Below are positions 30,200 through 49,152 of a stretch of 64,000 nucleotides of DNA, one piece after another. The position numbers and the translations under genes were made by a program. This DNA is from Candidatus Bathyarchaeota archaeon. GTDB taxonomy: Archaea > Thermoproteota > Bathyarchaeia > Bathyarchaeales > Bathycorpusculaceae. Numbering within the stretch: the first letter of the stretch is position 1; each line of letters starts with the position of its first letter. The stretch lies in NCBI GenBank assembly GCA_963760905.1, contig CAVXEQ010000005.1, positions 100,310 through 164,309 of the forward strand, read 5' to 3'. A model generated the notes under the pieces. That model did no database searches, was not told the origin of the DNA, and saw nothing but the letters and a program-made list of their open reading frames with translations.

Positions 30200-30709
30200 T
30201 TATTTGCTTGTTTTAGCGAGGTACTTGAGGTGGAACGGTTTAATGAGTACTCCAGGTTTCAGATCTGCCTGGAAACTTTGCGTCTCAATAATTACATCCG
30301 AAAGCTCGGACCCTTGAGTTCTTAGGAACTCAGCAAAACCGGTATAGTTTTCGTGTAAAGATACGCAGACTGCATCCCAGCCCATTCCCTGACCATCCAA
30401 AACTGCAACAACGTTGGGTTGTTTTAAATACCATTCTTTTAGCTTGTTGAAAGCTGCTTCTTTGTCTGCACCTTTCTTGTGGTTAAGGTTTGTCTTCATG
30501 AAGGTGAAAGCTGCAATTTCGAAACCGATTTGTCCAAATTTCGGAATGACGGTGTACCCTTCGATTGTGTTGTCTTCAAGCATGGCTCTTCGTCGCGTAA
30601 CAGTCGGCTGAGAAATGCCTAAAGCCTTCGCAAGTTGCCTGTCGCTTCGATGAGAATCCTTCATGAGCTCAAAGAGAAGTTGATAATCTAATGGTTTCAG
30701 TTCTTTCAT
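30200..30709 (-). CDS. Lrp/AsnC-family transcriptional regulator
   Basis: MKELKPLDYQLLFELMKDSHRSDRQLAKALGISQPTVTRRRAMLE. The start is taken at 30709. Confidence 0.8.
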   Translation of the reverse strand: MKELKPLDYQLLFELMKDSHRSDRQLAKALGISQPTVTRRRAMLEDNTIEGYTVIPKFGQIGFEIAAFTFMKTNLNHKKGADKEAAFNKLKEWYLKQPNVVAVLDGQGMGWDAVCVSLHENYTGFAEFLRTQGSELSDVIIETQSFQADLKPGVLIKPFHLKYLAKTSK

Positions 30710-30900
30710 TTTGGTTCGCCTGATTCTAATTTTGTTCCGTTTCATATGCATTTTCACGTTCATATATAAACTTGGTTGTTAGAGTAAATTAATTTACTCC
30801 CTAATTTCACCTAAATCCCAAAAATCTACCAAGTTTTTGGAGAAAGAAAGTCTTAAGAGAACAACAAACCTTTCTACACGCGAATAATGGAGACAAAAAA

Positions 30901-32262
30901 ATGCCCCTCAAACTCCTCAGAGAAGTCGAAGAAGAAACAGCAAACCTCCTAAGCCAACTTATCCAAATAGACACTACCAACCCGCCCGGAAACGAAACCG
31001 ATGCGGCAAAATATCTTGCAGAAAACCTTGCCAACGAAGGGGTGAACTGTGAAATCGTCGAATCTGCACCAAAAAGAGGCAGTGTTATCACACGCCTTGA
31101 AGGCTCAGGGGAAAAACCCCGTTTACTGCTTTTGTCGCATCTGGACGTTGTTGCCGCTAATCAAGCAGAATGGACGGTGAACCCTTTTGCCGGGGAAATC
31201 AAAGACGGTTTTGTTTGGGGACGTGGAGCTTTAGACATGAAGGGTATGACTGCAGTAGAGGTCATAACTCTTAAGTTGCTGAAACGGAACGATGTGAAGC
31301 TTAAGGGGGATGTGATTTTGGCGGCAACGGCTGATGAGGAAATGGGCGGCGTTTGCGGAGCGGATTTTCTGCTACGGAATTATCCTGAGAAGCTTTTTGC
31401 TGAGTACGTTTTGAACGAGGGGGGTGGTTCATCTATTTCAACGCATGCGAAGAACGTGTTTACGGTGAATACTGCTGAAAAAGGCTTGCTCTGGTTTAGA
31501 GTTAAAGCCAAGGGGATTCCTGGTCATGGCTCTATGCCTGATGCAGCTGACAACGCCATTATGCGCATGAATAATGTAGTTGCTAAGATAGGGGCCTTCC
31601 GTAGCACGTCCGAGCTTGTTCCTACGATGAACCAGTTTCTATCTGAGCTCGCACTTGCGGATTCCAGCTTAAAAGAGCCTTTGACGCAGATTTTGACGAA
31701 TCCAGAAAAGAGCGATTTGTTGCTTGATGAGCTGGAGAAAACTGCTCCCGCAATCGCTGATGAAATTCGTCCAAGACTCAAAATGACCATCACGCCAACA
31801 ATAATCAATGGCGGTGTGAAGGAAAATGTGATACCTTCGGAGTGTACCGCGGTTTTTGATTGCCGGGTGCTTCCTGGGCACCCCATATCGGAAGCTCAAG
31901 CCAAAGTTAGGGAGTTGCTTGCGGATGTAGGTCTGGATAAGCTTTCGTTTGAGACCATTCAAGCGCAGGAACCTTCGGAGTCGCCTGTAGACACTCCTCT
32001 TTACGGCGTGATAAAGAGCGTTCTTGGCGAGATTGAGCCAAACTGCGCTGTGGCTCCTTCGCTTATGACTGGAGGAACAGATAGCCGTTTCTTCCGCCGA
32101 ATGGGTGCCGTGTGCTACGGTTTTCACCCGCTACGTAGCGAAACGCGTTTTGGAGAAAAGGCAACTAGACGGGAACATGGTATCGATGAGCGGATTTCGG
32201 TTGAAAACTTGGTTTTTGGGGTTAGCGTGTTGTATGAGACGGTTAGGCGATTCATGAGTTAA
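30901..32262 (+). CDS. M20-family metallopeptidase (ArgE/DapE/ACY1 type)
   Basis: LLSHLDVV, GRGALDMKG and ADEEMGG motifs. Confidence 0.9.
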   Translation: MPLKLLREVEEETANLLSQLIQIDTTNPPGNETDAAKYLAENLANEGVNCEIVESAPKRGSVITRLEGSGEKPRLLLLSHLDVVAANQAEWTVNPFAGEIKDGFVWGRGALDMKGMTAVEVITLKLLKRNDVKLKGDVILAATADEEMGGVCGADFLLRNYPEKLFAEYVLNEGGGSSISTHAKNVFTVNTAEKGLLWFRVKAKGIPGHGSMPDAADNAIMRMNNVVAKIGAFRSTSELVPTMNQFLSELALADSSLKEPLTQILTNPEKSDLLLDELEKTAPAIADEIRPRLKMTITPTIINGGVKENVIPSECTAVFDCRVLPGHPISEAQAKVRELLADVGLDKLSFETIQAQEPSESPVDTPLYGVIKSVLGEIEPNCAVAPSLMTGGTDSRFFRRMGAVCYGFHPLRSETRFGEKATRREHGIDERISVENLVFGVSVLYETVRRFMS

Positions 32263-33572: not shown

Positions 33573-33860
33573 TCACAGAGGCTTCCAAATGCATTTTATT
33601 GCGCCTTTCGGGCAAGCCAAAACACACGGTGCCTTGTTTTCTTGTGGCTTACATTCTGCGCAGGTGTAACGGATTTTTTTCCGATGTGCTTCAGAAACGG
33701 CAGCGACATCTTTGTCTTCCAAATCGATGAATTCCGTGACCATCTCCAAAGCCGCCTGCGGGCATTTTTGGATGCATTCGCGGCAGCCGTTGCATTTGTC
33801 CGAGTCAATCACTATAAAGTATTCGCCTGAACCGTCTATGTAGCCGTAGTGCACAATCAC
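33573..33860 (-). CDS. 2x[4Fe-4S]-type ferredoxin
   Basis: CNGCRECIQKCP and CAEC...CVLACP motifs. It is the last gene of the seven-gene operon. Confidence 0.8.
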   Translation of the reverse strand: MIVHYGYIDGSGEYFIVIDSDKCNGCRECIQKCPQAALEMVTEFIDLEDKDVAAVSEAHRKKIRYTCAECKPQENKAPCVLACPKGAIKCIWKPL

Positions 33861-33870
33861 GCTTTGTGCC

Positions 33871-34776
33871 TCAGTTACCTTGAGACTTTAGGAGCAACGC
33901 TTTTCCCAAAAGCGCAGCACCTGTTGCCCCAGCAACCATCGGGTCTAAGCCGCCTTCCCGCCAATTCGGCGACGGAAGTGTCTTCACACCCAAGATGTTC
34001 TCGACTCTGTTAACTATGCCCATATTTTTGGATTGCCCACCAGTTATTACAAGTTCTTTTTCGAGGCCTACGCGGTTGATTAGGTTAGCCATCCTGACTG
34101 CCATAGCACGCGTATAAGCGGCGAGCACCTTTTCTCTCGACCACCCTTTACGCAGTAGCCCAACTGCTTCGGTTTTGGCGTATGCCACACAAGTGCAGCT
34201 TACAGGTTCGGGTTCCTCGTCAAGCGACAAGGAAACTCTGCCGATGTCTTCGATGGGAATCTGCAACAGGTCAGCAAAGACTTCCATGCCCCGGCCAGTG
34301 CCTGCCGCGCATTTGTCGTTCATGAGAAAAGAGGTAACTCTGCCTGTTTCGTCGCAGTGAATAGCTTTAATGTCTTGCCCGCCAACATCAAGGATAGTTC
34401 TAACGGATGGTCCCCAAATGTAGTTTGCGCCCTTCGCGTGGCAGGCAATCTCAGTGATGGCTTTGTTTGCCATGGGAACGTTTACCCTGCCGTAGCCAGT
34501 GCCTACGGTATATTTGATGTCTTCCTGTTTGAGTCCCGTGTCCTGCAGGACCATGCCCATGACTTTTTTGGCGCTGTCGGGGCTATTTGAACCGGTTCGT
34601 GTGACTGCCCATGCGTACAGGTCTCCATCAATCATAATTGCAGCTTTAGAACCCACTGACCCCACATCTACTCCTGCGGTGATTAGGTCTTTGTTTTTCC
34701 AGCTTTTGTCAGTGCGGACCCTGTGGTATTCCTGCCATCGCCAGTATTCTATTGGGTCCTTATGTTTCTCTGTCAT
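33871..34776 (-). CDS. BcrAD/BadFG-family ATPase (activase/reductase subunit), paralog 2
   Basis: Acetate/sugar-kinase (ASKHA) fold motifs DVGSVGSKA, NDKCAAGTGRG and GGQSKN. A 4-nt overlap with the upstream paralog. Confidence 0.9.
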   Translation of the reverse strand: MTEKHKDPIEYWRWQEYHRVRTDKSWKNKDLITAGVDVGSVGSKAAIMIDGDLYAWAVTRTGSNSPDSAKKVMGMVLQDTGLKQEDIKYTVGTGYGRVNVPMANKAITEIACHAKGANYIWGPSVRTILDVGGQDIKAIHCDETGRVTSFLMNDKCAAGTGRGMEVFADLLQIPIEDIGRVSLSLDEEPEPVSCTCVAYAKTEAVGLLRKGWSREKVLAAYTRAMAVRMANLINRVGLEKELVITGGQSKNMGIVNRVENILGVKTLPSPNWREGGLDPMVAGATGAALLGKALLLKSQGN

Positions 34777-35561
34777 TTTTGAACACCTTTCGCTCGGCTT
34801 GCGGCCGTAAGTGCTGCGCCCAATGCACCCGCGTACTCCGGATTCTCGGGAACAAGAATAGCTATTCCAAGCTTTCTTTTTAGTGATTCGATGAAACCGA
34901 CGTCTTTGGCCACGCCCCCAACGAGAACAATATCAGGGTTTATGCCCAGCCTGTGGACCATGGATGAGATGCGGTCGGCCATAGCGTCGAAAACGGCTCG
35001 GGCGATCTCTGGCTTCGATTCCTGCCGATGAATAAGTGAAACTACATCGGATTCCCCGAAGATTACGCAGCTTGCGTTGATTGGGCTGGCGCGTTCTGCC
35101 TTTAAGCTTAGGGGACCCATATCCTCCATTTTTACCTCTAGGGCTCTTGCCATGGCTTCGATGAAGGTACCTGCTCCTGCAGCGCACCGCTCGTTAACTA
35201 CGAAGTCAACCATAATGCCCCGTTCGTCGCATTTGACAGCCCGCGCCTCTTCAGCTCCAACGTCGATTACTGTTCGAGCGGAGGGAAACAAGTGAACTCC
35301 TGCTTTGGCATCAGCGCCCATCATGCTAACGTTGCCCTTCGAGTATGGTGCCATGTCCATGCCAGAGCCCGTAGCCAAGATTAAGCTTACTTCGTCTCTG
35401 GTCACTTTGGCAGCACCTAGAGCTTCAGCGAAGGCTTGCTCCGCTGCCTTGTTGGGTTCAAATCCTGAGAAAACTTTCGCCCGCGCAATAACCTCTCCGT
35501 CTTTGAGGACGACTACCTTTACGGTTTGTATACCCATGTCAAAGCCAACAGTTGTCACCAT
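34773..35561 (-). CDS. BcrAD/BadFG-family ATPase (activase/reductase subunit), paralog 1
   Basis: VGFDMGIQTVK, NERCAAGAGTF, NASCVIFGESD and VGGVAKD motifs. Confidence 0.9.
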   Translation of the reverse strand: MVTTVGFDMGIQTVKVVVLKDGEVIARAKVFSGFEPNKAAEQAFAEALGAAKVTRDEVSLILATGSGMDMAPYSKGNVSMMGADAKAGVHLFPSARTVIDVGAEEARAVKCDERGIMVDFVVNERCAAGAGTFIEAMARALEVKMEDMGPLSLKAERASPINASCVIFGESDVVSLIHRQESKPEIARAVFDAMADRISSMVHRLGINPDIVLVGGVAKDVGFIESLKRKLGIAILVPENPEYAGALGAALTAASRAKGVQK

Positions 35562-35573
35562 AAGAGTTCGCCT

Positions 35574-36905
35574 CTAAAAGTCCACTCTCGCCGCCAGCAT
35601 TTCAAGGAATGCTTCAACCCGCGTCTTCATTTGCCCCACATCTTCCCGAGTGTATTCTGTATCTAAGTAATAAACGGGGATGTTCAGTTTGTCCAACGCC
35701 TTCTTCACTCTGGTATACTCCATTGCGTAAAGCATGCAGCCGCGGACCACATAGTAGATGACGCCTTGCGCTTTGTTCTCTTTAACTTTGGTTATGAGCC
35801 AGTTTATGCGGTCTTCGTTGCCGTCTTTTGACGTGAAGCAGGGACAAGTAGAAGCCATAAGGTAGCGTTCAGCTATGCCGTTGATCATGTCGTCCATTGT
35901 CCACTCATCTATACCCACGGGATCATAGAGGACTCTGTCGCTGGAACATAACTCGTCACCAACTAACACACCCTGAGGAGTCGCCTCTTCAATGAGCGTG
36001 GGCAATTTCCAGTTATCAGGCCAAAACATCGGCGTTCCAGTCACAACGACTCGGGGCGTATCAAGCGGACAAGCCCACGCCTTCTGCGCTGCGCGCTTAT
36101 CCAACTCGTCGCAGAGGGCTTCAGTTTTCTCAGTCCACCGTTGAATGTTATCCCACATGCTTGCCTGATTAACCAGCATAGCATCCCTACCCATAATAAC
36201 TGGGTTACCTTTCCGGTGATCTTGAAGCCTACGGAAAGCTTTAGTCGCTTTCTGCATGGTTTCGACGGCTGCTTTCAACTTCTTAGCGGTAATCTTGTTA
36301 CCAGTAAGTTTTTCAATTTGAGTTTTGATTGATTTAATTTCTTCTTTCCATAGTTGTAAAGATTGGGCAGAGTCCTTCACTCTTGGCGGGGTCATCGTCC
36401 AAACGGGCTTGGCGTCGCTGAGAATTTCGCTGAGTTTAGTCATGCCGTCGCAAGTTAAAGTGCTTATCACAACATCGCTCAACTCCAAGTAAGGAGACAA
36501 ATCAATCATTTTGGCGCCTATCGTTGAACGGATAACTGGGCAAACTTCCACAGGCACGATGCGGTCGCCGAGCTTTGAGGTGTCATACCAGCCTGAGTTA
36601 ACGCGAACAGGAATGGCGTCTGCAGCCAAAATCAACTCGACCGGGGCGAATACGCAGAAGTATCCGATTACCTTTTTGCCCTTTGCTTTTTCTTCTCTGA
36701 TTTCTTGCTGGCGTTTCCCAAAGAAGTTTGAAATTTCATCAAAGTACTGCATGGCGGCGGGTCGGTTAGGATCGGTTTTCTTCATACGGGCAATGTTGTC
36801 GGCTATGATTTTGGCGGAAGCCGATTTGACGGTAGCGTTTAGTTCATCAATTTCTTTCTGGGGCATTTCAGGCATGTATTTTTTTTCTGCAGTTTGGCTT
36901 TTCAC
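35574..36905 (-). CDS. HGD-D family protein (2-hydroxyacyl-CoA dehydratase / benzoyl-CoA reductase B/C / double-cubane-cluster-protein superfamily)
   Basis: KKVIGYFCVFAPVELILAADAIPVRV is a typical N-terminal motif. About 10 Cys residues are present, including STCPCF. This is the only such subunit in the cluster. Confidence 0.85.
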   Translation of the reverse strand: MKSQTAEKKYMPEMPQKEIDELNATVKSASAKIIADNIARMKKTDPNRPAAMQYFDEISNFFGKRQQEIREEKAKGKKVIGYFCVFAPVELILAADAIPVRVNSGWYDTSKLGDRIVPVEVCPVIRSTIGAKMIDLSPYLELSDVVISTLTCDGMTKLSEILSDAKPVWTMTPPRVKDSAQSLQLWKEEIKSIKTQIEKLTGNKITAKKLKAAVETMQKATKAFRRLQDHRKGNPVIMGRDAMLVNQASMWDNIQRWTEKTEALCDELDKRAAQKAWACPLDTPRVVVTGTPMFWPDNWKLPTLIEEATPQGVLVGDELCSSDRVLYDPVGIDEWTMDDMINGIAERYLMASTCPCFTSKDGNEDRINWLITKVKENKAQGVIYYVVRGCMLYAMEYTRVKKALDKLNIPVYYLDTEYTREDVGQMKTRVEAFLEMLAARVDF

Positions 36906-36916
36906 TTTGAGTTCTC

Positions 36917-37900
36917 CTATTCACTATTTGATGGTTCTAACCAGTTACGAGATTTGAATATGGTTTTTCCTGCCAAATTCATTTTTAAGCATCCTTCATA
37001 TGGGCACATCTCGATGCATCGCATGCAGTTTAGACAGACTGATGTTGCGATGTCGCCTCCTTTCTGCTCGTAAACGTCGGTGACTTGCACGGGGCATACG
37101 CGTTTGCATATTCCGCACTTGGTACATTTCTCTTCAGTCTTGTTTATATGAAGTAGCGGTGCCCACTTGAACGCTTTGAATCTGTTTGCGGCGGCTAAAG
37201 ATATCCCGGTGGGGCAGAAACGGCACCAGAATCGTCTAAACATAAAGGTGCCTGCCAAGGTTAAGGCAATGAATACGTAAATAATTATGGATGTGAGGAG
37301 GGGCACGTTTATGTAATAAATTATGTCTCGGGCATAGGGGTAACTGATGCTCCATCCGATGAAGCCCAGACCTGCCACTGAACCTGCAAAGGGCACGATA
37401 AGTGGCTCAAGTGGACTTAAGAAGATATCTATGGGTCTAAAAGGACCTCTTAGAAATTCCGCTTGAATTTGAGATTGGGGAGCAACGGACAGCACGCCTA
37501 AGAACAACGGCGAAATCAGTATTATTGCTGCGATAACATATCTTAGTTTGTGTAGAATGCCGTTCACTCTTTCCGGAAGGGTCCAATATCTTATGCCTAT
37601 TTTCTTTCGAAGCAGAGCAATGAGGTCCATGTAGAATCCGAAGGGACATATCCAGCCGCAGAAGAACCTGCCGCTGAAAAGTGTCGCTGTTAAAATGACT
37701 AAGAAGAAAATCGAGAGCCATAGAGCCATTGTGAAAGAGTAAAAAACACCTACAAGAGAGACCACCTGGATGAAAATTCTGAGGTAACTCAGCTTCCTGG
37801 TTCGATCTTTTTTCCATATAAGAATGACTAATATTCCCGCCAGCGCTAAACCTACCGCTACCATCCCCGCAAATATCGTCCCCAATAGCGCTTCGTACAT
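36917..37900 (-). CDS. NapH/MauN-like polytopic membrane Fe-S protein
   Basis: CGWICPFG and WCRFCPTG membrane-proximal motifs. The C-terminus carries CTKCGICKRVCP and CLNCMRCIEMCP. Confidence 0.8.
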   Translation of the reverse strand: MYEALLGTIFAGMVAVGLALAGILVILIWKKDRTRKLSYLRIFIQVVSLVGVFYSFTMALWLSIFFLVILTATLFSGRFFCGWICPFGFYMDLIALLRKKIGIRYWTLPERVNGILHKLRYVIAAIILISPLFLGVLSVAPQSQIQAEFLRGPFRPIDIFLSPLEPLIVPFAGSVAGLGFIGWSISYPYARDIIYYINVPLLTSIIIYVFIALTLAGTFMFRRFWCRFCPTGISLAAANRFKAFKWAPLLHINKTEEKCTKCGICKRVCPVQVTDVYEQKGGDIATSVCLNCMRCIEMCPYEGCLKMNLAGKTIFKSRNWLEPSNSE

Positions 37901-37929
37901 TATGTTCAGCCTTAATGATTAGATGACCA

Positions 37930-38610
37930 TTAAATAATTATTGCGTTTATGAGGGTAACTATCCCCAATATGATGAGGGTAGCAGCGCCCAACCTTGATA
38001 TCCACTTCCTAAAGAGAGGTGCCTTATTCAGTAGCCATCCTGTTGCTCCGCCCAACAGAAGAATCGGAGATAGTGTTGTTCCTAAGCCGAATAGGACAGC
38101 TAACGCTAAGCTGTCAATTGGAGACGCAAATGTCACTGAATAGGCCAAAATCGCCAATAGCGGTGTGCATAATAATAGTCCTCTGGATAAGCCCAGTGTG
38201 TAAGCTCGAAAGTCAAAGCGGTCTCTGAGCCTTTTTGAACCCGCATTTAGGCTTCCGTTTGCGACGCAGTTGCATGAAGGCTGCTTGTTCCGAACAAGAA
38301 TCGTTACGCCAATTGCAATTGTAACTGCGCTGAATGCAAAAGAGGAGTAAGTTTGGAAGGCGTATCGAAAAGAGTCGTCCATCAGCAGTTTAAACATGCC
38401 GATGGCGGCGCCGATTATGGCGTATGCTGTCAAGCGTCCTGAATTGAAAATCAAGGTAACAAACATGCCTCGACGGAAATCTGCGTTTATTCCCGCTATG
38501 TAACTTGCCACGTATGGAAGACAGGTTGAAGTGCAAAAGACCAACCCGTACAAAAAGCCGCCTGCCAAAGCAGCAACGTACGGATTCGCAATCTCAGGCA
38601 GCAACGACAT
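37930..38610 (-). CDS. CcdA/DsbD_2-like transmembrane protein (thiol-disulfide or metal transfer)
   Basis: 226 aa with about six TM helices. Cys residues lie within TM segments (FCTSTCLPY, LLLCTPLL), and a loop carries CNC. The start overlaps the upstream gene by 17 nt. Confidence 0.6.
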   Translation of the reverse strand: MSLLPEIANPYVAALAGGFLYGLVFCTSTCLPYVASYIAGINADFRRGMFVTLIFNSGRLTAYAIIGAAIGMFKLLMDDSFRYAFQTYSSFAFSAVTIAIGVTILVRNKQPSCNCVANGSLNAGSKRLRDRFDFRAYTLGLSRGLLLCTPLLAILAYSVTFASPIDSLALAVLFGLGTTLSPILLLGGATGWLLNKAPLFRKWISRLGAATLIILGIVTLINAIII

Positions 38611-41524
38611 GTTTAGTTACTCTTTTCCCTCGTTTGAAAGCTGATGCAAACACGCCAAATTTGAAATTTACGTAAACCAAAGCCGCTAAGACCCCAACGG
38701 CTGGAAAAGCCACAATGGGAAAACTGTTTTGGCTTGAAAGGACGTCTTGAGGTGTAGCAGGGGCATCAATGACTCGGGTGTTCCAATCTTGCAGGTAGTT
38801 CTGGTGAGCCGTATCATTTGGGTAACTCTCTGAGGGCAAATAGGGGAATCCGCTCATGTTTTGGAATGGCAATGGGTCCACGGTGAAGCCGAAGCCGAAA
38901 CCCCAATTTCCGTTTGCGTCTTTGAACCAGGATGCCTCATAGAGGAAGTAATCGCGAACCATGCCTGGGGCTGGAGCAGAAAGGTTAGCTATTGGGAACT
39001 GCAGAGAGACTGCGTCGCCTTGTCTTCCGATAACGAACATATCGTCTTCGCTGAGAACCAATTGGGTTACGTTTCCGTATCTTGTCAGGTTGCCTGAGGC
39101 AGCGTCTGTCCCGGGGGTAAAATCAGGGTAAAGGTAGGCTTGCGGATCGACTTTTTGGATGGTTATGTTTTGCTGGGGGGTTGTGTCCACCGCGATGTAG
39201 TCGAATGTTACGTTCCAGAAGTTGTTGATCCTGAGCGAGTAATCGTTTGTAGGGAACAAACCTGTCAAATCAATCACGTATGTTCTGGCTGCTCCGTCGG
39301 AAGGCAGCGGGAAATCTCTGCTTTGTGGAACGGGCACCCAGTTGCCGTTTCCATCCTTCACCTCCATGTATGGAGGTGGAGTCACTTGGGTTCCGTTGGG
39401 TACTGGCTGGGCGAAGAACATGTTTAGCCAAGTGTTGTAGTCGTCGCCTGAACCCCAATCGACTATCGCACGAACAACCAGCTTAATTTGGGGGGCACCA
39501 GTCAGGTTTCCCAGGTTCAGAGTTATTGTGTTCCAAGTTATGTTGTCCCATGCAGGGCTTTGAATGCCATTTCCGCCGGAGGTGAAAACATCATCAATTT
39601 GGGAGATCTGAGGTAACACATTCTCGCCTTTCTCGTTAACGGCAGAAACTGGAGTTAGGGGTCTGTTGCTGACTGTATATATGTTGCCCATGTAGGCTGG
39701 GTCAAGATACTGCTCTTCCATTGTTGAGTAAACGCTTACGTTTGCGGGATGATCAACTACCATCATGTAAGCTTGGTCTAAGTAGAATATTTCATTCCAT
39801 TTTTGTATAAGCGTCAGGTTAAAGTTGCCGTCGGTAGATTGCATTTGACTGCTGTTTAGCGGCACGTAATCCCATGGATTATTTCTGTAGTAGGTTATGG
39901 AGCCGTCATCGTTGATGTAGTTGATGTATCCCAGCCAGCCGTGGTTGGAAACGTCTGTGACGTAAACGTAGTCGGTTCCGTTCCACATGTAAAGTGCGGG
40001 ACATGACGAGCCTCCGGTGTAAGTTGCTGTTATGCTCATGCGTTGTGTGAGGTCAAATGTTCTAGCGAGATTTGTGCTACCGTCGTCCCACTGCAGGAAT
40101 GTAATTACGCCAGTTGGGTCAGTTAACGGCATCGTAACGGTGTACTTTCCCTCTGGTAAGAGGGCTGTCCAAAATGTTGTATGCTTCTCAGTTACGCCGC
40201 TGGGCAAGGTTATGGTGAAATCTGCATCGCCACGGGGAGAAATTGCAACGCTTAGCGAGTGATAACCGTTTTTAACAACTAGGAAACCACCCTGCACCCC
40301 GTTTACATCAACCAAGTACGTTAATGAGTCTCCTCCTGGAAGAGGATCAGCAGTGACAATGAAATCTACACTTCCATCTGCGCCAGCCGCCGCCGTTAGA
40401 GTTTTAGTTTGGACTGTTTGAAGGTTATCTAAGGTTGTGCCAACTTTGAGTTTTAGTGAAAGGCTGCTGACATCGGTTCCTTGGTTAGTGCCTTTAACTG
40501 TTACCGTCACTGTTTGCCCGGCCCACACTTCGTATGGCTTAACAATCATCCCAGTTAACTTAATCGTTGAGGGATTTTGAACGCTAAGTGTTCCTGTCGC
40601 GTTACCTATCATAACTGCGTAGTTACCGTTGGCAGCTTCCGTCAAAGTAAATGCTACAGAAGTCGTTTCTCCGCCAGATAACTGAACGGTTTTGCTTCCT
40701 TTCACCTCGCCATTTACGCTGAAATCAACCGAGTAGCTACCGCTGGTTTCCCCGACGTTAGTCACTTTAGCAGTAACGCTTACGGACATTCCAGGTTCAG
40801 CGACTTCCGGGTCTATCGTTAGATTACCAACTAGGAATTCAGCGGGTTTAGGCGGTGCAGCTGCAGTGGTAATTACAAAAGTTCCATTCAAATCACCTAT
40901 CTTGAAGCTGTAAGTTCCTTCGGTCTGTTCCACAACTTCGAACAGAACGCTGGTGCTTGCTCCCAAGTCCAACTGACCCGTTTTGGTCCCTATTGCCGAG
41001 TCATTAATTGAGAGCGTTACTGAGTAGTCTGAAGTTTCTTGAGCTTTGTTAGTTACCTTGACTGTGATGCCGATGGGTTCGCCGACTTTGGCTTCAGTTC
41101 GGTTAACAGCAAGGTCAGATAACTCGAATGTGCTTGTGAGAGTAAAGGTTCCCTCCAAGGTGCCTATTCCCACTATATGGGTTCCGCTTTCTACTCCAGA
41201 AATTGTAAATTGAACCGTTTTTGTTTCTCCAGCTGCAAGCTTGATTGTTTGGGCCTGGTTTTGCGTTCCATCAAGAACTAAATTAACGGGGTAGGTTCCA
41301 GTTTCCCCTCCGGTGTTAGTTACATTAACTGACACAGTAATGGGCTGGCCTACTATTCCTGCTGGCGGATTTACATCTAAACCAACCAGTTGGATTTGAG
41401 ATGGAGAAAGGGTGGGTCCAGGCAATGAAGTAACGTAGAAGTATCCTGCTGCTGCAGAAGCAACTATTATTATGTCGATAATTAGGATAGCTTGAAGCTT
41501 ACTTATGGCAGATTTGGAGAGCAT
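38594..41524 (-). CDS. Large surface protein: N-terminal anchor, about 5 CARDB-like Ig-fold repeats, an unassigned C-terminal half and a C-terminal TM anchor
   Basis: The repeats follow the pattern V.V.VTN.G...G.Y.V.L..(N/D)G......(V/L)..GE(T/S).(T/S)V.F. The C-terminal helix is FPIVAFPAVGVLAALVYV, followed by basic residues. Confidence 0.8.
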   Translation of the reverse strand: MLSKSAISKLQAILIIDIIIVASAAAGYFYVTSLPGPTLSPSQIQLVGLDVNPPAGIVGQPITVSVNVTNTGGETGTYPVNLVLDGTQNQAQTIKLAAGETKTVQFTISGVESGTHIVGIGTLEGTFTLTSTFELSDLAVNRTEAKVGEPIGITVKVTNKAQETSDYSVTLSINDSAIGTKTGQLDLGASTSVLFEVVEQTEGTYSFKIGDLNGTFVITTAAAPPKPAEFLVGNLTIDPEVAEPGMSVSVTAKVTNVGETSGSYSVDFSVNGEVKGSKTVQLSGGETTSVAFTLTEAANGNYAVMIGNATGTLSVQNPSTIKLTGMIVKPYEVWAGQTVTVTVKGTNQGTDVSSLSLKLKVGTTLDNLQTVQTKTLTAAAGADGSVDFIVTADPLPGGDSLTYLVDVNGVQGGFLVVKNGYHSLSVAISPRGDADFTITLPSGVTEKHTTFWTALLPEGKYTVTMPLTDPTGVITFLQWDDGSTNLARTFDLTQRMSITATYTGGSSCPALYMWNGTDYVYVTDVSNHGWLGYINYINDDGSITYYRNNPWDYVPLNSSQMQSTDGNFNLTLIQKWNEIFYLDQAYMMVVDHPANVSVYSTMEEQYLDPAYMGNIYTVSNRPLTPVSAVNEKGENVLPQISQIDDVFTSGGNGIQSPAWDNITWNTITLNLGNLTGAPQIKLVVRAIVDWGSGDDYNTWLNMFFAQPVPNGTQVTPPPYMEVKDGNGNWVPVPQSRDFPLPSDGAARTYVIDLTGLFPTNDYSLRINNFWNVTFDYIAVDTTPQQNITIQKVDPQAYLYPDFTPGTDAASGNLTRYGNVTQLVLSEDDMFVIGRQGDAVSLQFPIANLSAPAPGMVRDYFLYEASWFKDANGNWGFGFGFTVDPLPFQNMSGFPYLPSESYPNDTAHQNYLQDWNTRVIDAPATPQDVLSSQNSFPIVAFPAVGVLAALVYVNFKFGVFASAFKRGKRVTKHVVAA

Positions 41525-41848
41525 GCCATGAATAGAAGGGATAGTCCTTATATAATTATACCCGAATTGAACGAACTAAAATTGTTTTGAACATAATGCT
41601 ATTTCTTCTGGCCCTCTCTAAGAAGCAAAGAGGAGACTACTCGTTTCTTCTGTGAATTTGAGGCAATTGCTTCTGGATAGCATTACAAAGTTTTTGTGTT
41701 GACTTTTCAATTTTTGCCCCAATCGTTTTCCAGGTCAACTTAAACATATGTCAACCTAACTGCCGCATTGCCTGCAAATATGCACACAACATTTTCACTT
41801 TTACTCGGGAATGTTTATATTTACTTCACCTATTTCAACATCTGTAAT

Positions 41849-42376
41849 ATGGACAAAGTGAGCACTGTGAGGCGCCAACCTTTGGAAGGAAACGAACAGC
41901 AAGCCAGTTTCGCGGATAAAATGGACGACATGGATTTCCGTATTCTTTGCCTACTGCAACAAGACTCTAGGCTGAGCTTCAATAAAATAGCAAGCAAGTT
42001 GGGGATATCAGTGGGCACGGCGTTTAACCATGTCAAAAACTTGGAGAAGAAAGGTGTTCTGAAAGGTTACACTATAATTCTGGATTCAGAGAAAGTAGGC
42101 TATGGTTTGACCACTTTAATATTGATTCAAACGGATGGTGGTCACCTCCCAGAGGTTGAAAAAGAAATCTCCAAAGCATCAAACGTTGTTGCCGTTTACG
42201 ACATAACTGGAGAGTACGATGCTGCTATAATCACTAAATTTAGAGATAGAGCAAGCCTAAGCGCTTTCTTGAAGAATTTGATGGCGACTCCTCACGTCAA
42301 ACGAACCGTGACAAGCGTTGCACTTGACATTATCAAAGAAGATCTCAGAGTCACGTTGATGGAAAGAACAAAATAA
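41849..42376 (+). CDS. Lrp/AsnC-family transcriptional regulator
   Basis: DFRILCLLQQDSRLSFNKIASKLGISVGTAFNHVKNLEKKGVL plus a RAM-type C-terminal domain. TATA-like TTTATATTT lies about 30 nt upstream of the ATG at 41849. The gene is divergent from the operon. Confidence 0.85.
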   Translation: MDKVSTVRRQPLEGNEQQASFADKMDDMDFRILCLLQQDSRLSFNKIASKLGISVGTAFNHVKNLEKKGVLKGYTIILDSEKVGYGLTTLILIQTDGGHLPEVEKEISKASNVVAVYDITGEYDAAIITKFRDRASLSAFLKNLMATPHVKRTVTSVALDIIKEDLRVTLMERTK

Positions 42377-42570: not shown

Positions 42571-45363
42571 TTATTTTGTGCCTTTTCTTCTTCTCCATGC
42601 GATGTATTTGCCGATTTCCAGCGAGCTAAAAACGATAGCCGTAAACAGTATGGCGAATGCCCAATCCAAAGGTTCAGGAGCGTGTACACCAAATACAGCC
42701 TGAATGGGCGGCACGTAAAGCACAACTAACTGCAGCACAAACGACGAAAGTATTGCGTACCAGAGGAACTTGTTCTTGAAGACGCCAACTTTGAACACTG
42801 GATACTTCAGCGAGCGAGCGGATACAGCGTTAGCTAACTCCATCAGAATCATCGCTGTTAACAGCTGGGTTCTAGCTTCAGTGAGTTGGTAGGCACCTTC
42901 CCATGGTTTATAGAAGAAGAAGCCGAACAACAAAAGAACAGTCATCAAGATTGGCGCAAACGTGAGGTAAGCTTTCACTTCTCTGCTGAATATGCTTTCC
43001 TTTGGCTTTCGCGGTTTCTGTTCCATCAAGTCTGGGTCGCCTGGGTCTACGCCTAACGCGATGGCGGGCAAACCGTCAGTCGTGAGGTTAACCCACAGCA
43101 GTTGCACAGCCGTTAAAGCCACGGTCGCTTCGCTTATGGTGGCCGATGTTGAGCCAGGAGAGAAAATGGCCGCTAAAGTTGGAACAGAGATGACGACGAT
43201 GAACATGACGAGGATTTCCATAATGTTGCATCGGAGCAAGTACGTAAGGTATTTCTTGATGTTACCATAGATTTCGCGGCCCTCCTTCACGGCTTTCACA
43301 ATGGAGGCAAAGTTATCATCAGCCAAAACCATGTCTGCAGATTCCTTTGTAACCTCGGTCCCGGTGACACCCATAGCCACCCCTATGTCACTCATCTTCA
43401 ACGCAGGAGCATCGTTAACTCCATCGCCAGTCATGGCAACTATGTGTCCTCTGGATTTCCATGCTTGAACTATGCGCATCTTGTGCTCAGGGGAAACTCT
43501 AGCGTAAATAGCTACGTTTTCCACTTTTTCCTCCAGCTCTTGTTGGCTGAGTTTTTCAAGTTCTGGACCTGTGAGGACTCTGTCTTCTGAGTCGTTTTCG
43601 CCCAGCAGGTTAAGTTCTTTAGCTACAGCCGTTGCGGTCAGTTTATGGTCACCTGTAACCATGACCACGTTGATTCCAGCTCTCTTGCACACATTTATGG
43701 CGTCTTTTACTTCTTTTCGGGGTGGATCAATCATGCCCATAACGCCAGCAAATGTAAGGCCTTTCTCGATTTTCTCATCGAATTCTTCAAGATTCTTAGG
43801 CAACGTAGTATAAGCAAAACCTAAGTTTCGAAGCGCTTGGTTAGCCATAGCTTCAGTAACTTTGAGAACGTCTGCCCGTTTTTCTTCGGTTAATTCTTGA
43901 ACTTTTCCATCCAAGAGGATCCGGGTGCACTTTTCAAGAACTATTTCAGGGGCGCCTTTCATATAAGCGAATTTCGTATTGCCAGTCAAGTGAATAGTGG
44001 TCATGCATTTCCGTTCCGAACTGAAAGGGATTTCCGCTATGCGAGGCTCTTGGGATTCCAGAGTCTCTTTCCAGAGGTCAGCTTTCGCCGCCACTACCAC
44101 AAGCGCGCCCTCGGTTGGATCACCCTTAATTATCCACCGTTCAGTTTCGGTGTCCCTTTCGAGTTTAGCATCATTGCATAACGTTGCGATTTTCAGAAGA
44201 GTCGTAAGTTGTGGGTTAGAAGAGTATTCCTTGTTTTCCAGTTGGAATTTACCTTCTGGATCATAGCCTACCCCTGTAACTTTTATTGCTTTGTCCCCAG
44301 TGTAGATTCTCTGGACCGTCATTTCGCCCTTGGTCATGGTTCCCGTTTTGTCACTGCAAATGACGCTTGTGCAGCCCAAAGTTTCAACCGCAGGCAGTCG
44401 CTTTACTATGGTGTTGACTTTTGCCATGCGGAACATCCCTACTGCCAAGGCACCAGTAACAATAGCTGGAAGCGCTTCAGGAACAGCGGCTACTGCTAGG
44501 CTAACGGCCCAAAGAAGCATACTTATCGGGTTGCGCCCGTCAATGATACCTATTGCACCAACGCCGACGCACACTACAATTGAGAGGATACCAATCCATT
44601 TGCCGACAGTTGCCATTCGTTTCTCCAACGGAGTAGATTCTGTGTTTGCAGTTTGGACGAGTTTCGCAATTTTTCCAAATTCGGTGTTCATGCCTGTTGA
44701 CGCGACAAGCGCTTTGGCTCTGCCGTAGGCCACGATTGTGCCTGTGTAAATCATGTTTTTGCGATCGTTAAGCTGAGTATCTTCGGGAAGCGGGTTTGTA
44801 TTCTTGTTAACAGGGGCGGATTCGCCAGTTAACGCTGCTTCCTCAAGTTTAAGATTATGAGCCTCAAGCAGCCGTGCATCAGCAGCAACTTTATCGCCGG
44901 TGTAGACAAGAATTATGTCGCCTGGAACTAGTTGCGAAGCGGGAATTTTGGTTTCCTTCCCATCTCGTATTACTATTGCGCTTGGCGCAGTCATTCGTTT
45001 TAGAGCTTCAACGGCCTTTTCGCTGCGATACTCTTCAAAGAAACCCAGCGTTGCGGTTGCAATAACTATGGCGAGAATTATGAGGGCATCAATAGTTTCC
45101 CCAATGGCAACTGAAAGTCCCGTTGCAATGAGTAAGATAATCATAAGGATGTCAGTAAATTGTCCAAGAAACAACTTTATTGGGGAGGTTCCTTTTTCCT
45201 TGGTTAACTCGTTTGCTCCGTAGGTGCCAAGGCGGTTTTGTGCTTCTTGGGAGTCTAATCCTTTCTCTTCGACTTTGAGTTCTTGCATTGCTTCTTCAGG
45301 ATTTAATGCATGTAGGGATTTTGCCAAGTTGCTTTTACTCCTGTTTGCCGATAAGTTCCACAT
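42571..45363 (-). CDS. Cation-transporting P-type ATPase (type II, Ca2+/SERCA-PMCA-like)
   Basis: TGES, CSDKTGTMT and MTGDGVNDAPAL motifs, with 10 TM helices predicted. Confidence 0.93.
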   Translation of the reverse strand: MWNLSANRSKSNLAKSLHALNPEEAMQELKVEEKGLDSQEAQNRLGTYGANELTKEKGTSPIKLFLGQFTDILMIILLIATGLSVAIGETIDALIILAIVIATATLGFFEEYRSEKAVEALKRMTAPSAIVIRDGKETKIPASQLVPGDIILVYTGDKVAADARLLEAHNLKLEEAALTGESAPVNKNTNPLPEDTQLNDRKNMIYTGTIVAYGRAKALVASTGMNTEFGKIAKLVQTANTESTPLEKRMATVGKWIGILSIVVCVGVGAIGIIDGRNPISMLLWAVSLAVAAVPEALPAIVTGALAVGMFRMAKVNTIVKRLPAVETLGCTSVICSDKTGTMTKGEMTVQRIYTGDKAIKVTGVGYDPEGKFQLENKEYSSNPQLTTLLKIATLCNDAKLERDTETERWIIKGDPTEGALVVVAAKADLWKETLESQEPRIAEIPFSSERKCMTTIHLTGNTKFAYMKGAPEIVLEKCTRILLDGKVQELTEEKRADVLKVTEAMANQALRNLGFAYTTLPKNLEEFDEKIEKGLTFAGVMGMIDPPRKEVKDAINVCKRAGINVVMVTGDHKLTATAVAKELNLLGENDSEDRVLTGPELEKLSQQELEEKVENVAIYARVSPEHKMRIVQAWKSRGHIVAMTGDGVNDAPALKMSDIGVAMGVTGTEVTKESADMVLADDNFASIVKAVKEGREIYGNIKKYLTYLLRCNIMEILVMFIVVISVPTLAAIFSPGSTSATISEATVALTAVQLLWVNLTTDGLPAIALGVDPGDPDLMEQKPRKPKESIFSREVKAYLTFAPILMTVLLLFGFFFYKPWEGAYQLTEARTQLLTAMILMELANAVSARSLKYPVFKVGVFKNKFLWYAILSSFVLQLVVLYVPPIQAVFGVHAPEPLDWAFAILFTAIVFSSLEIGKYIAWRRRKGTK

Positions 45364-45695: not shown

Positions 45696-47252
45696 ATGGT
45701 GAACAAAATGAAAAAGGGCAGAGTACTTAACAAAATATCGCAGACAGCAGATAAAGTGATAGCAAAGCATTCATCGGTTTTCATGAAGAAAAAATGGTTC
45801 ATACTCGCAGGCATTCTCGCAACTTGCTTAGCAATGAGCGTAGGCAGAGCCTTTGCACAAACAGGCGATCCATTGACAGATGTTGGCACTGCAGTAAGCA
45901 TGGCCTGGACTCTTGCCATGGGCGCATTAGTCTGGTTTATGCAGCTTGGTTTCGCCTTCCTAGGCGCTGGCTACATTAGACATAAAAACCAAGTCAACTA
46001 TTGGTCAAAAAGCTACATAGACTTCAGCATCGGTGTAGTTATATTTGCATTAGTCGGCTTTGCGCTCATGTTCGGTGGGTCCGGTGCAGCTTTTCCAACA
46101 GGATTTGACGGAGCAGGCAACGTAATTTACACCCCCCTCGCAGGAATAGGAAGCGGTAACTCTATCATAGGCTGGAGTGGCTTCGCTTTAACAGGGGACG
46201 CCTACAACGGCTTGACATTAACGTACTTCTTCTGGCAAGCAGTCTTCGCAGCTACCTCAGTCACAATCGTCGCGGGTATGGTCGCAGAAAGAATGAAGTT
46301 CCAAGCGTACCTCATCTACACTTTACTAATTAACATCCTTATTTACCCCGTATACGGCCACTGGGTCTGGGGTGGCGGATGGCTAGCAACATTACCTCTC
46401 GGTGTCGGTGTGAGAGACTTCGCAGGATCAGGGGTGGTTCACGCAGTCGGTGGCTTCACAGGTTTAGCTGGTGCATTTCTGATAGGCCCGAGAATAGGGA
46501 AGTTTGGCAAAGATGGCAAACCACGATCTTTCGGATACACCAACGTACCCTACATAGTCATTGGCACAATGATTCTTTTCCTTGGCTGGTTCGGCTTTAA
46601 CCCTGGAAGCACCCTAAGCACATTAGACTTCAGAACACCCGTAGTCGCAGTAAACACATACCTTGCGGGTGGCGCAGCTGCAGCCTTAGCGGTTTTCATA
46701 AGCTACTTTGACAAGAAGAACTTTAAAGGCGCCGACATCTCGGCAGTCTGTTGCGCAGCTTTGGGCGGTCTCGTAGCTATCACAGCACCCTGCGCATATG
46801 TACCTCCATGGGCGGCAATAATCATAGGCCTTGTAGCAGCTCCGATAACGATCTACGGCAACTTCTTCGTAGAGCGGAAACTGAAAATTGACGACCCTGT
46901 AGGTGCATTCGGTGTCCACGGACTCAACGGTGTCTTCGGGTTGCTTGCAGTAGGTCTCTTTGCGGACGGAACATACGGCGGAGTGCAAGGCCTCTTCATA
47001 AACGGAACTGCTGGTCTTGGACAGTTAGCTGCACAGTTGGTGGACGTATTGGTCGTTGCTGGGTTTGCGTTCGGTATGGGTCTGTTAATCTTCGGTGGAA
47101 TCAAATACACCATTGGTCTACGGGCATCAGTCAAAGATGAAACGGAAGGTCTGGACATAACAGAACACGGATTCTCTGCGTACCCCGAAGTCGTCATGAA
47201 GCCGGAAGATCCAGAGTGGCTCGGAGAAGATGCGAAAGACAAGAAGAAATAG
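45696..47252 (+). CDS. amt: Ammonium transporter (Amt family), long form
   Basis: VHAVGGFTGLAGAFLIGPR and DDPVGAFGVHGLNGVFG motifs. An alternative start at 45783 (MKKKWFIL) would give a signal-peptide-like N-terminus. Confidence 0.93.
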   Translation: MVNKMKKGRVLNKISQTADKVIAKHSSVFMKKKWFILAGILATCLAMSVGRAFAQTGDPLTDVGTAVSMAWTLAMGALVWFMQLGFAFLGAGYIRHKNQVNYWSKSYIDFSIGVVIFALVGFALMFGGSGAAFPTGFDGAGNVIYTPLAGIGSGNSIIGWSGFALTGDAYNGLTLTYFFWQAVFAATSVTIVAGMVAERMKFQAYLIYTLLINILIYPVYGHWVWGGGWLATLPLGVGVRDFAGSGVVHAVGGFTGLAGAFLIGPRIGKFGKDGKPRSFGYTNVPYIVIGTMILFLGWFGFNPGSTLSTLDFRTPVVAVNTYLAGGAAAALAVFISYFDKKNFKGADISAVCCAALGGLVAITAPCAYVPPWAAIIIGLVAAPITIYGNFFVERKLKIDDPVGAFGVHGLNGVFGLLAVGLFADGTYGGVQGLFINGTAGLGQLAAQLVDVLVVAGFAFGMGLLIFGGIKYTIGLRASVKDETEGLDITEHGFSAYPEVVMKPEDPEWLGEDAKDKKK

Positions 47253-47260
47253 CTGAAATA

Positions 47261-47299
47261 GTTGCCTTGAAAAGGCGACTTTCCCTTTTTATTTTTTTG
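47261..47299 (+). terminator. Hairpin (GTTGCCTT-GAA-AAGGCGAC) followed by a T-rich tract
   Basis: Seen directly, 9 nt after the amt-1 stop. A T-run of this kind is compatible with archaeal termination. Confidence 0.45.
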
Positions 47300-47436
47300 T
47301 TCAACTGTTTTGTGGATTTAACTGGATCTTCTTTTCTGGATGTTTTGCTGATTACTTAAATGAAATTTGTCAACAGTAAACTAGGCACAGCACTACATGT
47401 GTTCTGCATTTAGACATTTTTCTTTAAACTCTTCCA

Positions 47437-47484
47437 GTTTTTCATAAAAATTATGCACAAATCACAAACAAGCTTATATTGGCT
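47437..47484 (+). promoter_or_regulatory. Conserved 48-nt promoter block, copy upstream of the ArsB/NhaD-type permease
   Basis: GTTTTTCATAAAAATTATGCACAAATCACAAACAAGCTTATATTGGCT. Confidence 0.5.
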
Positions 47485-47559
47485 GCAGTTTCCTTTGAAG
47501 GAAACGTTCAAGGATGTTGATGAAACCTGCCGCTTGATAATCAAATCATAATCCTTCCT

Positions 47560-48783: not shown

Positions 48784-48785
48784 AA

Positions 48786-48799
48786 TGAACAAACATTCA
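48786..48799. promoter_or_regulatory. Palindrome TGAA-CAAACA-TTCA (candidate operator)
   Basis: The same motif recurs at 49433-49446 and 50963-50976. Confidence 0.4.
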
Positions 48800-48840
48800 A
48801 CTTTTTTGCCGCCCATTTTTTATGCTGAAGGTGACTTATA

Positions 48841-49152
48841 ATGTCTGAAAAACATATGCCCTCTAAAAAAGGTAAGAACTTCAAAGAAGTAATCGAGCAA
48901 GAGAAAAACAAGGGAAAAACCCGCAAAAAAATAATGAAGCAGCTTACACATATCAACGCAGAGGTTATGTACGGAGGCTCGTTTCTATTGGTATTTGTAG
49001 TCTTGGACATTTTGATTTACTATCTCATAACGCCAAGCGTCTTCATTTGGGCAGGCGTCCTCATAGGGACTGCATTATTGAGCTCAATCTTTGCGTCACG
49101 TCTAACAAATACCCTCAAGAAGCAACAATGGAAATATGCTTCAAGCCAATAA
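48841..49152 (+). CDS. Hypothetical two-TM small protein with a basic N-terminus
   Basis: 103-aa ORF with GAAGGTGA upstream of the ATG. Confidence 0.45.
   Translation: MSEKHMPSKKGKNFKEVIEQEKNKGKTRKKIMKQLTHINAEVMYGGSFLLVFVVLDILIYYLITPSVFIWAGVLIGTALLSSIFASRLTNTLKKQQWKYASSQ

Follow-up and report, generated by a model that had tools for sequence, protein, structure and literature searches.

A conserved archaeal gene cluster joining a double-cubane cluster protein and two ATPases to membrane and surface proteins

On a 64,000-nt stretch of a contig from Candidatus Bathyarchaeota archaeon (GCA_963760905.1, CAVXEQ010000005.1, positions 100,310–164,309), called the window here at its full length, seven tightly packed genes occupy positions 33573–41524 of the minus strand. 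From the first gene to the last, they encode a surface-anchored protein, a membrane protein of the DsbD_2 family, a NapH-like membrane polyferredoxin, a protein of the HGD-D family, two ATPases of the BcrAD_BadFG family and a ferredoxin. Which kind of reductase do these genes encode, and what do the membrane and surface proteins have to do with it? The parts all belong to known families, and no description of their combination was found in the open-access papers searched: a system of archerase and a protein with a double-cubane cluster (DCCP), in which the ATPase is heterodimeric and the membrane and surface partners are conserved. On balance, we lean to the reading that the operon encodes a membrane-associated, ATP-driven double-cubane reductase system with the mechanism proposed below.

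The open reading frames lie exactly at the coordinates first noted. From the first gene on, the spacings are an overlap of 17 nt, gaps of 29, 11 and 12 nt, an overlap of 4 nt and a gap of 10 nt, as the initial annotation of this DNA had given them, and the gene downstream of the ferredoxin gene is convergent. The genes stand too close together to leave room for internal archaeal promoters; the simplest reading is therefore a single transcript, and the seven genes would form one operon. Profile searches with Pfam and NCBIfam agree with the family proposed for each protein (CARDB, DsbD_2, two Fer4_5 domains with two ferredoxin motifs, HGD-D, BcrAD_BadFG twice, and a 2[4Fe-4S] ferredoxin). In the translations, CGWICPFG, WCRFCPTG, NERCAAGAG and NDKCAAGTG are all found, and the predicted cofactor-binding residues are intact in all components.

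The catalytic protein and its ATPases

The HGD-D protein (35574–36905, minus strand; 443 aa, GTG start) matches PF06050 with 318 bits and the NCBIfam double-cubane model NF040772 with 336.8 bits (cut-off 350). The other NCBIfam models give 110 bits for HadC (cut-off 700), 87.4 for BzdN (453.8), 16.5 for BzdO (448.6) and 71.5 for BcrC (421). Among solved structures, the C. hydrogenoformans entries 6ENO and 7YYL are matched with an E-value of 3e-81, BzdN with 2e-21 and HadC with 1.5e-18; the DCCP match is thus about 60 orders of magnitude ahead of the BzdN match by E-value. The match to 6ENO spans residues 45–437 of the query, with an identity of about 45% as estimated from the printed alignment.

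The published seven-cysteine DCCP motif (PMC7317905) was mapped onto the alignment with the C. hydrogenoformans protein, DCCP_Ch. All six predicted ligand cysteines of the [8Fe-9S] cluster are kept (C84, C122, C152, C320, C354/356 and C390). The seventh, non-ligand cysteine (Cys94 of DCCP_Ch, found in classes I and II) is replaced by Asn103, and class III DCCPs are likewise without it (PMC7317905); the archaeal DCCPs of the outgroup clusters described below retain it. In the C. hydrogenoformans DCCP, an N-terminal extension narrows the substrate channels. The protein here has this extension too, which suggests, by analogy, a small substrate. In a library clustered at 50% identity, the DCCPs of Bathyarchaeia form an isolated branch and share no more than 46% identity with the nearest full-length relatives outside it.

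According to these scores and residues, the HGD-D protein is assigned as a DCCP, and not as a subunit of a benzoyl-CoA reductase (BCR) or a dehydratase. The initial annotation had placed the protein nearer to DCCPs than to either enzyme, and model scores and structure matches agree. It had also counted a single HGD-D subunit: a second HGD-D gene is found neither in the window nor beside the cluster in 80 related genomes. As the protein groups with the homodimeric DCCP and not with a BCR or dehydratase subunit whose partner is encoded elsewhere, no missing catalytic partner is needed. An assignment to 2-hydroxyacyl-CoA dehydratases was rejected on the single HGD-D gene, the two different ATPases and the HadC score.

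Two BcrAD_BadFG genes are located directly downstream of the DCCP gene. Their products, ATPase 1 (34773–35561, minus strand; 262 aa) and ATPase 2 (33871–34776, minus strand; 301 aa), both keep both cysteines that bridge the [4Fe-4S] cluster, and they are about 28% identical to each other. The best solved matches of ATPase 1 are MbdQ (9GAI_D, 5e-51) and HadI (4EHT). ATPase 2 matches HgdC (1HUX) with 2e-54, is BzdQ-like, with 376.7 bits against the BzdQ model TIGR03192 (cut-off 380.2), and carries an N-terminal extension. The two different ATPases had been compared with a BCR-type pair at the outset, and the identity, the BzdQ-like score and the bridging cysteines bear this comparison out. Both are predicted to be archerases, heterodimer-like as in BCR. 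Archerase dimers accept an electron from ferredoxin or flavodoxin, and ATP hydrolysis injects the electron into the Fe-S cluster of the partner (PMC9351452, PMC7317905, PMC11971306).

The last gene encodes a 2[4Fe-4S] ferredoxin (33573–33860, minus strand; 95 aa, GTG start) with eight invariant cysteines. As judged from sequence, the soluble module combines a DCCP-type catalytic part with a heterodimeric pair of ATPases, as in BCRs, and with a ferredoxin of its own. In a sister clade, natural DCCP::ATPase fusions of about 730–765 aa are followed by a second ATPase gene (locus L091, protein P0412, and about 12 related clusters; L- and P-numbers are our own handles). These fusions support a complex of the DCCP with an ATPase heterodimer. 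The fusion loci are still preceded by genes for a DsbD_2-like protein, a NapH-like protein and three beta-propeller proteins.

Two known systems resemble this module. It shares with the DCCP and DCCP-R of C. hydrogenoformans (6ENO, 7YYL; Jeoung & Dobbek) the catalytic family, the six ligand cysteines, the N-terminal extension and, to judge from the sequence, the dependence on an ASKHA archerase with a bridging [4Fe-4S] cluster. In contrast to the homodimeric DCCP-R, two different ATPases are present here; a dedicated ferredoxin, an asparagine for the seventh cysteine and an operon link to NapH-like, DsbD_2 and surface proteins are further differences. The DCCP papers PMC7317905 and PMC9351452 contain no mention of an ATPase pair, a dedicated ferredoxin, this asparagine or a membrane/surface linkage. 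With BCRs of the Bzd/Mbd type (BzdNOPQ with ferredoxin; 8S02, 9GAI), the module shares the heterodimeric ATPase pair, in which ATPase 2 is nearly a BzdQ equivalog, and the ferredoxin, and BzdN also carries an [8Fe-9S] double cubane. Unlike in these BCRs, no BzdO/BcrB-type subunit and no aromatic-CoA pathway genes are found here, and membrane partners are present.

Conservation of the gene order and flanking genes

With one genome scanned for each GTDB species, 80 Bathyarchaeia loci were obtained. Homologues of the seven proteins and of the flanking genes were located by tblastn, and de novo open reading frames were also clustered. The order surface protein, DsbD_2, NapH-like, DCCP, ATPase, ATPase, ferredoxin recurs on one strand, and the flanks differ widely. 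Among the loci with enough upstream sequence, the NapH-like gene is directly upstream of the DCCP gene in 69 of 75, a DsbD_2 gene is present upstream in 59 of 75, and the surface-protein gene in 53 of 63. Identities to the window proteins are 74–89% for the DCCP, 71–91% for the ATPases, 42–81% for the NapH-like protein, 46–79% for the DsbD_2 protein and 40–73% for the surface protein. The arrangement is far beyond chance: among 80 species-level genomes, the flanks differ and the order and strand are kept. The proposal that the seven genes are one conserved unit is upheld by the short gaps and by the order kept in these genomes.

The nearest outgroup DCCP (P0244) was then used as the query, and the contigs of ten relatives were inspected. 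They carry the labels of a complete Thermoplasmata chromosome (CP070672), Thermoplasmatota metagenome-assembled genomes (MAGs) and an Altiarchaeales MAG, besides unlabelled contigs; the MAG labels may be wrong. The outgroup DCCPs are 37–39% identical to the window DCCP. In nine of the ten loci a Fer4_5 NapH-like gene is located directly upstream of the DCCP gene, often with a 4-nt overlap, and its product is 30–34% identical to the window protein with the same series of motifs (CX3CP, CX2CP, CTKC..C...CP and a second ferredoxin motif). Two ATPases follow downstream in five loci, in one of which the DCCP and the first ATPase form a fusion protein, and the second outgroup ATPase is 38–39% identical to ATPase 2; three loci have NapH-DCCP without adjacent ATPases. 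Six loci encode a DsbD_2 homologue of 235–258 aa, without a Pfam match, between the surface genes and the NapH-like gene.

All nine outgroup NapH-DCCP loci have beta-propeller proteins of the PQQ_2, WD40 and FG-GAP types upstream. The surface component there consists of three such proteins, which are non-homologous to the Bathyarchaeia surface protein and have signal peptides and C-terminal transmembrane anchors where the ends are readable. No separate ferredoxin gene is found in the outgroup clusters, and the sole ferredoxin-like module is the C-terminal domain of the NapH-like protein. The soluble ferredoxin is an addition specific to Bathyarchaeia. Contigs with at least three phylum-level labels show the design of surface beta-rich proteins, DsbD_2-like protein, NapH-like protein, DCCP and two ATPases. 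The initial annotation had asked whether the link between the membrane/surface genes and the reductase genes is present in related genomes; it is present in related Bathyarchaeia and under the labels of other phyla.

One cluster is found under a bacterial label, [Eubacterium] cellulosolvens (L088, GCA_975970955.1). It groups with the archaeal DCCPs and shares the cluster and its flanks (radical SAM, bactofilin, iPGM, DUF92) with the metagenome contig L086, and the contig may be mis-binned or mislabelled.

In about 30 more distant Bathyarchaeia loci (e.g. L036, L047, L061), the surface-protein gene has a CDF cation-efflux gene on its upstream side, and a secreted, transmembrane-anchored Oxidored_molyb (MsrP-like) protein is encoded downstream of the ferredoxin gene. 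An apparent second HGD-D gene upstream of the surface protein in about 30 loci proved to be this CDF transporter, brought in by a spurious link in single-linkage clustering. Two further proteins are encoded downstream of the ferredoxin gene in distant loci, c8 (334 aa) and c6 (189 aa, 38 loci). None of the CDF, Oxidored_molyb, c8 and c6 genes is found in this window. The c6 family was compared with 189-aa open reading frames near the outgroup clusters, and no similarity was found.

The exact DCCP sequence of the window is also found on a Logan contig with identical gene order, and its closest relatives, which are 74–90% identical, are all from Bathyarchaeia MAGs, including ones labelled Bathy-6 and Candidatus Bathycorpusculum. 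Several related MAGs were sampled in the palsa, bog and fen of Stordalen and at SPRUCE sites (L036, L040, L068, L072, L039). The host of the operon is a Bathyarchaeia archaeon of the Bathy-6 type. Positions 34001–36000, the DCCP/ATPase part, are a local maximum of GC content (51% against 44–48% around) and the most conserved stretch of the cluster.

The TATA-like run TATAATTATATAA is located at 41548–41560 of the minus strand, and its centre precedes the ATG at 41524 by about 30 nt, where such an element had been proposed. It is a putative archaeal promoter, and the transcript would be near-leaderless. The divergent neighbour (41768–42376, plus strand) is an Lrp/AsnC gene, as first noted, with matches to AsnC_trans_reg and HTH_24. 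It adjoins the cluster in only 3 of 81 loci (L001, L006, L009), and a role as a conserved, dedicated regulator is not supported; the gene is a candidate regulator of the cluster and is not conserved with it. Beyond it, a 930-aa cation-transporting P-type ATPase (E1-E2_ATPase, with N- and C-terminal Cation_ATPase domains) is encoded at 42571–45363 on the minus strand. On the other side of the operon (30200–32262), a second AsnC-type HTH protein is encoded beside a 453-aa open reading frame, and in many related loci homologues of these two (families c9 and c13) are likewise found together close to the cluster.

Three ammonium-transporter (Amt) paralogues are located at 45696–52302 on the plus strand, 4–11 kb upstream of the operon. 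Many close relatives (L003, L007, L011, L013–L017, L019–L021) likewise have Amt genes a short way upstream of the cluster; at L015–L017 and L020 they stand directly upstream of DsbD_2-DCCP on the same strand, and the surface and NapH-like genes are missing there. With the reduction of hydrazine and azide by DCCP_Ch, a nitrogen link of the cluster is conceivable.

Elsewhere in the window, a 725-aa protein with two haem peroxidase domain matches (catalase-peroxidase KatG-like) is encoded at 13766–15943 on the plus strand. Its gene is the sole GC-rich block of the window (55.5% against about 40–45% elsewhere), which suggests horizontal acquisition by an anaerobic archaeon. An Rfam scan of the 64-kb window gave no matches.

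The membrane and surface proteins

The NapH-like protein (36917–37900, minus strand; 327 aa) has two Fer4_5 domains. Its motifs are CX3CP (CGWICP; C81/C85), CX2CP (C226/C229) and two CX2CX2CX3CP ferredoxin motifs, and 12 cysteines are invariant in 69 orthologues. The second NapH-type motif, CRFCP, is CX2CP and not CX3CP, and is invariant in these orthologues and in the outgroup. The protein scores 75.9 bits against the NapH model TIGR02163 (cut-off 213) and 71.3 against NF007013 (cut-off 234). The topology was judged by eye from the hydrophobic stretches and positive-inside residues of the translation, and by this reading the predicted Fe-S sites all face the cytoplasm. The protein forms a subfamily of its own, common to Bathyarchaeia and to clusters of the Thermoplasmatota type.

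Like members of the NapH/NosR/CcoG family, it is polytopic, with cysteine motifs beside transmembrane helices and a C-terminal 2[4Fe-4S] domain. It differs from them in its NapH score far under the cut-off and in the CX2CP form of the second motif. Nap genes (NapG, NapA) are not found in the cluster, nor are Nos or cbb3 genes; the partners here are the DCCP system and a separate surface protein. The known characterised proteins of the family (NapH, NosR, PceC/RdhC, CcoG) serve extracytoplasmic or metal acceptors, and CcoG also joins a NapH-type core to an Ig-like extracytoplasmic domain.

In a reverse scan, metagenome contigs were searched with the NapH-like protein. A DCCP gene is located directly downstream in 41 of the 58 loci with at least 300 nt of downstream sequence (38 loci and L158, L159 and L162, in which the genes overlap). 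A neighbour-joining tree was made of 154 NapH-like copies, 119 of which are DCCP-linked; two small clades stand alone. A paralogous clade stands directly after the surface-protein gene (L008, L077, L105, L123, L124, L163, L103, L104, L130). In several loci the paralogue is an extra copy, in the order surface protein, NapH, DsbD_2, NapH, DCCP; in L103, L104 and L130 the surface protein and NapH-like protein occur and the DCCP is absent from the locus. The NapH-like protein is therefore seen as a probable hub, with the surface protein and the DCCP module as two partners independent of each other. NapH-like paralogues occur without a DCCP, and the membrane module can thus be present where the reductase is not.

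The DsbD_2 protein (37930–38610, minus strand; 226 aa), a CcdA-like polytopic membrane protein, matches PF13386 with 85 bits. C26, C30 and C148 are invariant in 57 Bathyarchaeia orthologues, and by our reading of the sequence C26 and C30 would lie in the first transmembrane helix (TM1) and C148 in the fourth (TM4). The protein is homologous to the membrane protein of about 250 aa in the outgroup (hhalign probability 97.3%, E 1.7e-11), in which exactly one cysteine each is invariant in TM1 and TM4. The family match and the invariant cysteines resemble those of CcdA/DsbD transporters. Unlike with these transporters, no thioredoxin-fold protein, as donor or acceptor, is found among the seven genes or their immediate neighbours. 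The family also includes putative permeases, and the ArsG model gives a weak match of 31 bits here. A thiol relay through the DsbD_2 protein is only putative because of the missing thioredoxin partner and these permeases.

The surface protein (38594–41524, minus strand; 976 aa) begins with a signal or anchor helix, continues with CARDB repeats at about residues 40–320 and ends with a transmembrane helix and a basic tail. The initial annotation had called it a CARDB protein. The repeats are indeed present, but the label undersells the protein. Residues 420–940 or so form a conserved all-beta region of about 500 aa without a Pfam family, and it is about residues 222–925 that orthologues conserve, rather than the CARDB repeats at the N-terminus. 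The motif SCPxLxxWNG holds the single invariant cysteine. Homologues of the C-terminal 521 aa are at least 59% identical in the 120 best clusters, and their source names are all Bathyarchaeia or Bathyarchaeota. An AlphaFold2 model of this part (pLDDT 80, pTM 0.76) is all-beta with several sandwiches. A Foldseek search of the PDB with the model gave weak local jelly-roll matches only (Eph ligand-binding domain, reelin repeats; query TM-score at most 0.18), and no redox-cofactor motif was found in the protein by Pfam or Foldseek.

Proposed mechanism, alternatives and meaning

We propose that a DCCP homodimer would bind the heterodimer of ATPase 1 and ATPase 2. The bridging [4Fe-4S] cluster of the ATPases, reduced by ferredoxin-type clusters, would inject ATP-energised electrons into the double cubane. 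This complex would dock on the NapH-like protein at its cytoplasmic ferredoxin domain, and this domain, with the soluble ferredoxin in Bathyarchaeia, would feed the ATPases. The NapH-like protein is favoured as the electron donor because its C-terminal domain is the only ferredoxin-like module of the outgroup clusters. It would act as the hub between the reductase and whatever the DsbD_2 and surface proteins handle at or across the membrane. The DCCP would be the terminal catalyst for a small, hard-to-reduce and probably thiophilic substrate, captured outside by the surface proteins and passed inward through the cysteine-lined DsbD_2 protein. Acetylene, hydrazine and azide are reduced by the characterised DCCP, with the double cubane as the site of reaction (PMC9351452, PMC7317905, PMC11971306).

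A similar logic has been proposed for selenocysteine-assisted organometallic (SAO) loci, in which bioinformatics links DCCPs to transport proteins lined with cysteine or selenocysteine (Haft & Gwadz, bioRxiv 10.1101/2022.07.06.499078). There, too, DCCP and activase genes are linked to Cys-rich transport proteins, and the authors propose 'import then reduce' at the double cubane. The SAO loci differ in their membrane components and in being from bacterial anaerobes, whereas the present clusters are archaeal. No SAO family was found in the NCBIfam scan of the seven proteins, which included the SAO models, though no search was aimed at them; no selenoproteins were noted.

Several observations weigh against the proposed reading. 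The proposal is drawn from gene sequences, and the putative complex of NapH-like protein, DCCP and ATPases from gene adjacency. The model with the NapH-like protein as donor names no source of electrons for that protein. The catalytic protein falls 13 bits short of the NF040772 cut-off, and in the Foldseek search of the PDB no fold for binding or catalysis could be recognised in the surface protein. Four Bathyarchaeia loci (L015–L017, L020) have DsbD_2-DCCP without a NapH-like gene, about 14 loci, or about a fifth, are without DsbD_2, and L075 is without all three upstream genes. Conversely, no DCCP is found directly downstream of the NapH-like gene in 17 of the 58 loci of the reverse scan, and one coherent clade of about 12 NapH-like copies stands beside the surface-protein gene without a DCCP.

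The best of the alternatives, a sharpened form of the conduit proposed in the initial annotation, reverses the direction, and we regard it as rather unlikely. Electrons would pass from ferredoxin through ATPase 1/ATPase 2 to the DCCP as relay or store, then to the NapH-like protein and across the membrane, e.g. through the TM1/TM4 cysteines of DsbD_2, to a substrate held at the surface. The acceptors served by the characterised NapH family fit this direction, as do the CcdA-type cysteine pattern of DsbD_2, the single invariant cysteine of the surface protein and the absence of a thioredoxin gene from the cluster. NapH paralogues that accompany the surface protein where the DCCP is absent suggest that the NapH-like protein serves the surface protein. 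In BzdNO, moreover, the double cubane of BzdN is an electron relay and a store that feeds the catalytic subunit (PMC11971306). However, very low-potential electrons boosted by ATP would be dissipated through ordinary ferredoxin-type clusters and a thiol relay, and the characterised DCCP is a terminal catalyst (PMC9351452). Moreover, DsbD_2 is missing from about 20% of the Bathyarchaeia loci and from three of nine outgroup loci, and no redox-cofactor motif is seen in the surface proteins. The observations fit the inward direction equally well, and we consider it, with the DCCP as terminal catalyst, slightly more likely than the outward one. A specific form in which the double cubane would be an ATP-charged, very low-potential electron store, and not the site where catalysis ends, feeding the NapH-like hub and, partly via a DsbD_2 cysteine relay, a surface-held substrate is judged unlikely.

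It is quite improbable that two modules are merely co-transcribed, namely surface protein, DsbD_2 and NapH-like protein for maturation or for metal or thiol handling, and a soluble reductase with which no electrons are exchanged. Such independence would agree with the loci that keep one module only: surface protein and NapH-like protein without a DCCP (L103, L104, L130 and others), and DCCP, ATPases and ferredoxin without the upstream genes (L075). It would also agree with DsbD_2-DCCP without the NapH-like gene (L015–L017, L020) and with the three outgroup loci in which no ATPases adjoin NapH-DCCP. Against it, the adjacency of NapH-like and DCCP genes, often with overlapping stop and start codons, is kept under three phylum-level labels at 30–39% identity. 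Functional coupling is favoured because synteny that deep is rarely kept without it.

An incomplete or atypical class I BCR or 2-hydroxyacyl-CoA dehydratase, with aromatic or acyl-CoA compounds as its substrates, is very improbable: the source (JGI) annotations 'BcrC/BadD/HgdB', the near-cut-off BzdQ score of ATPase 2, the two different ATPases with a ferredoxin as in BCR operons, and the report of BcrACD without BcrB in Bathyarchaeum tardum (PMC10477458) would suit it, but the HGD-D gene is single in the cluster, the window and 80 related loci, its product scores far under the BzdN and BcrC cut-offs, matches the DCCP far ahead of BzdN and has the DCCP-type channel-narrowing extension, no CoA ligase or dienoyl-CoA pathway gene is found in the cluster, and benzoate inhibited the growth of B. 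tardum (PMC10477458).

The preferred reading of a membrane-associated, ATP-driven double-cubane reductase concerns a family without an assigned role. DCCPs are nitrogenase-like ATP-driven reductases, and the groups that solved their structures state that the natural substrate and role are unknown (PMC9351452, PMC11971306). No description of this linkage of a DCCP system to NapH-like and other membrane and surface genes was found in the open-access papers searched, in line with the initial statement that no described system has this coupling. The present cluster gives a DCCP a conserved, multi-phylum context, and shows which partners to co-express and where to seek the substrate. If the double cubane is an electron store for the NapH-like hub, the cluster would represent an ATP-driven system that needs neither cytochromes nor quinones for reduction at or outside the membrane, common to Bathyarchaeia, Thermoplasmatota and Altiarchaeota, and would give DCCPs their first physiological role.

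The assignment also bears on the metabolism ascribed to Bathyarchaeia, which belong to the lineages most abundant in sediments. The routine annotation of these genes there is 'benzoyl-CoA reductase subunits', and it has been read as a capacity, if an incomplete one, for aromatic-ring reduction, as in Bathyarchaeum tardum (PMC10477458). The pattern 'BcrACD without BcrB' of B. tardum is explained, as far as the sequences indicate, as a DCCP system and not a BCR.

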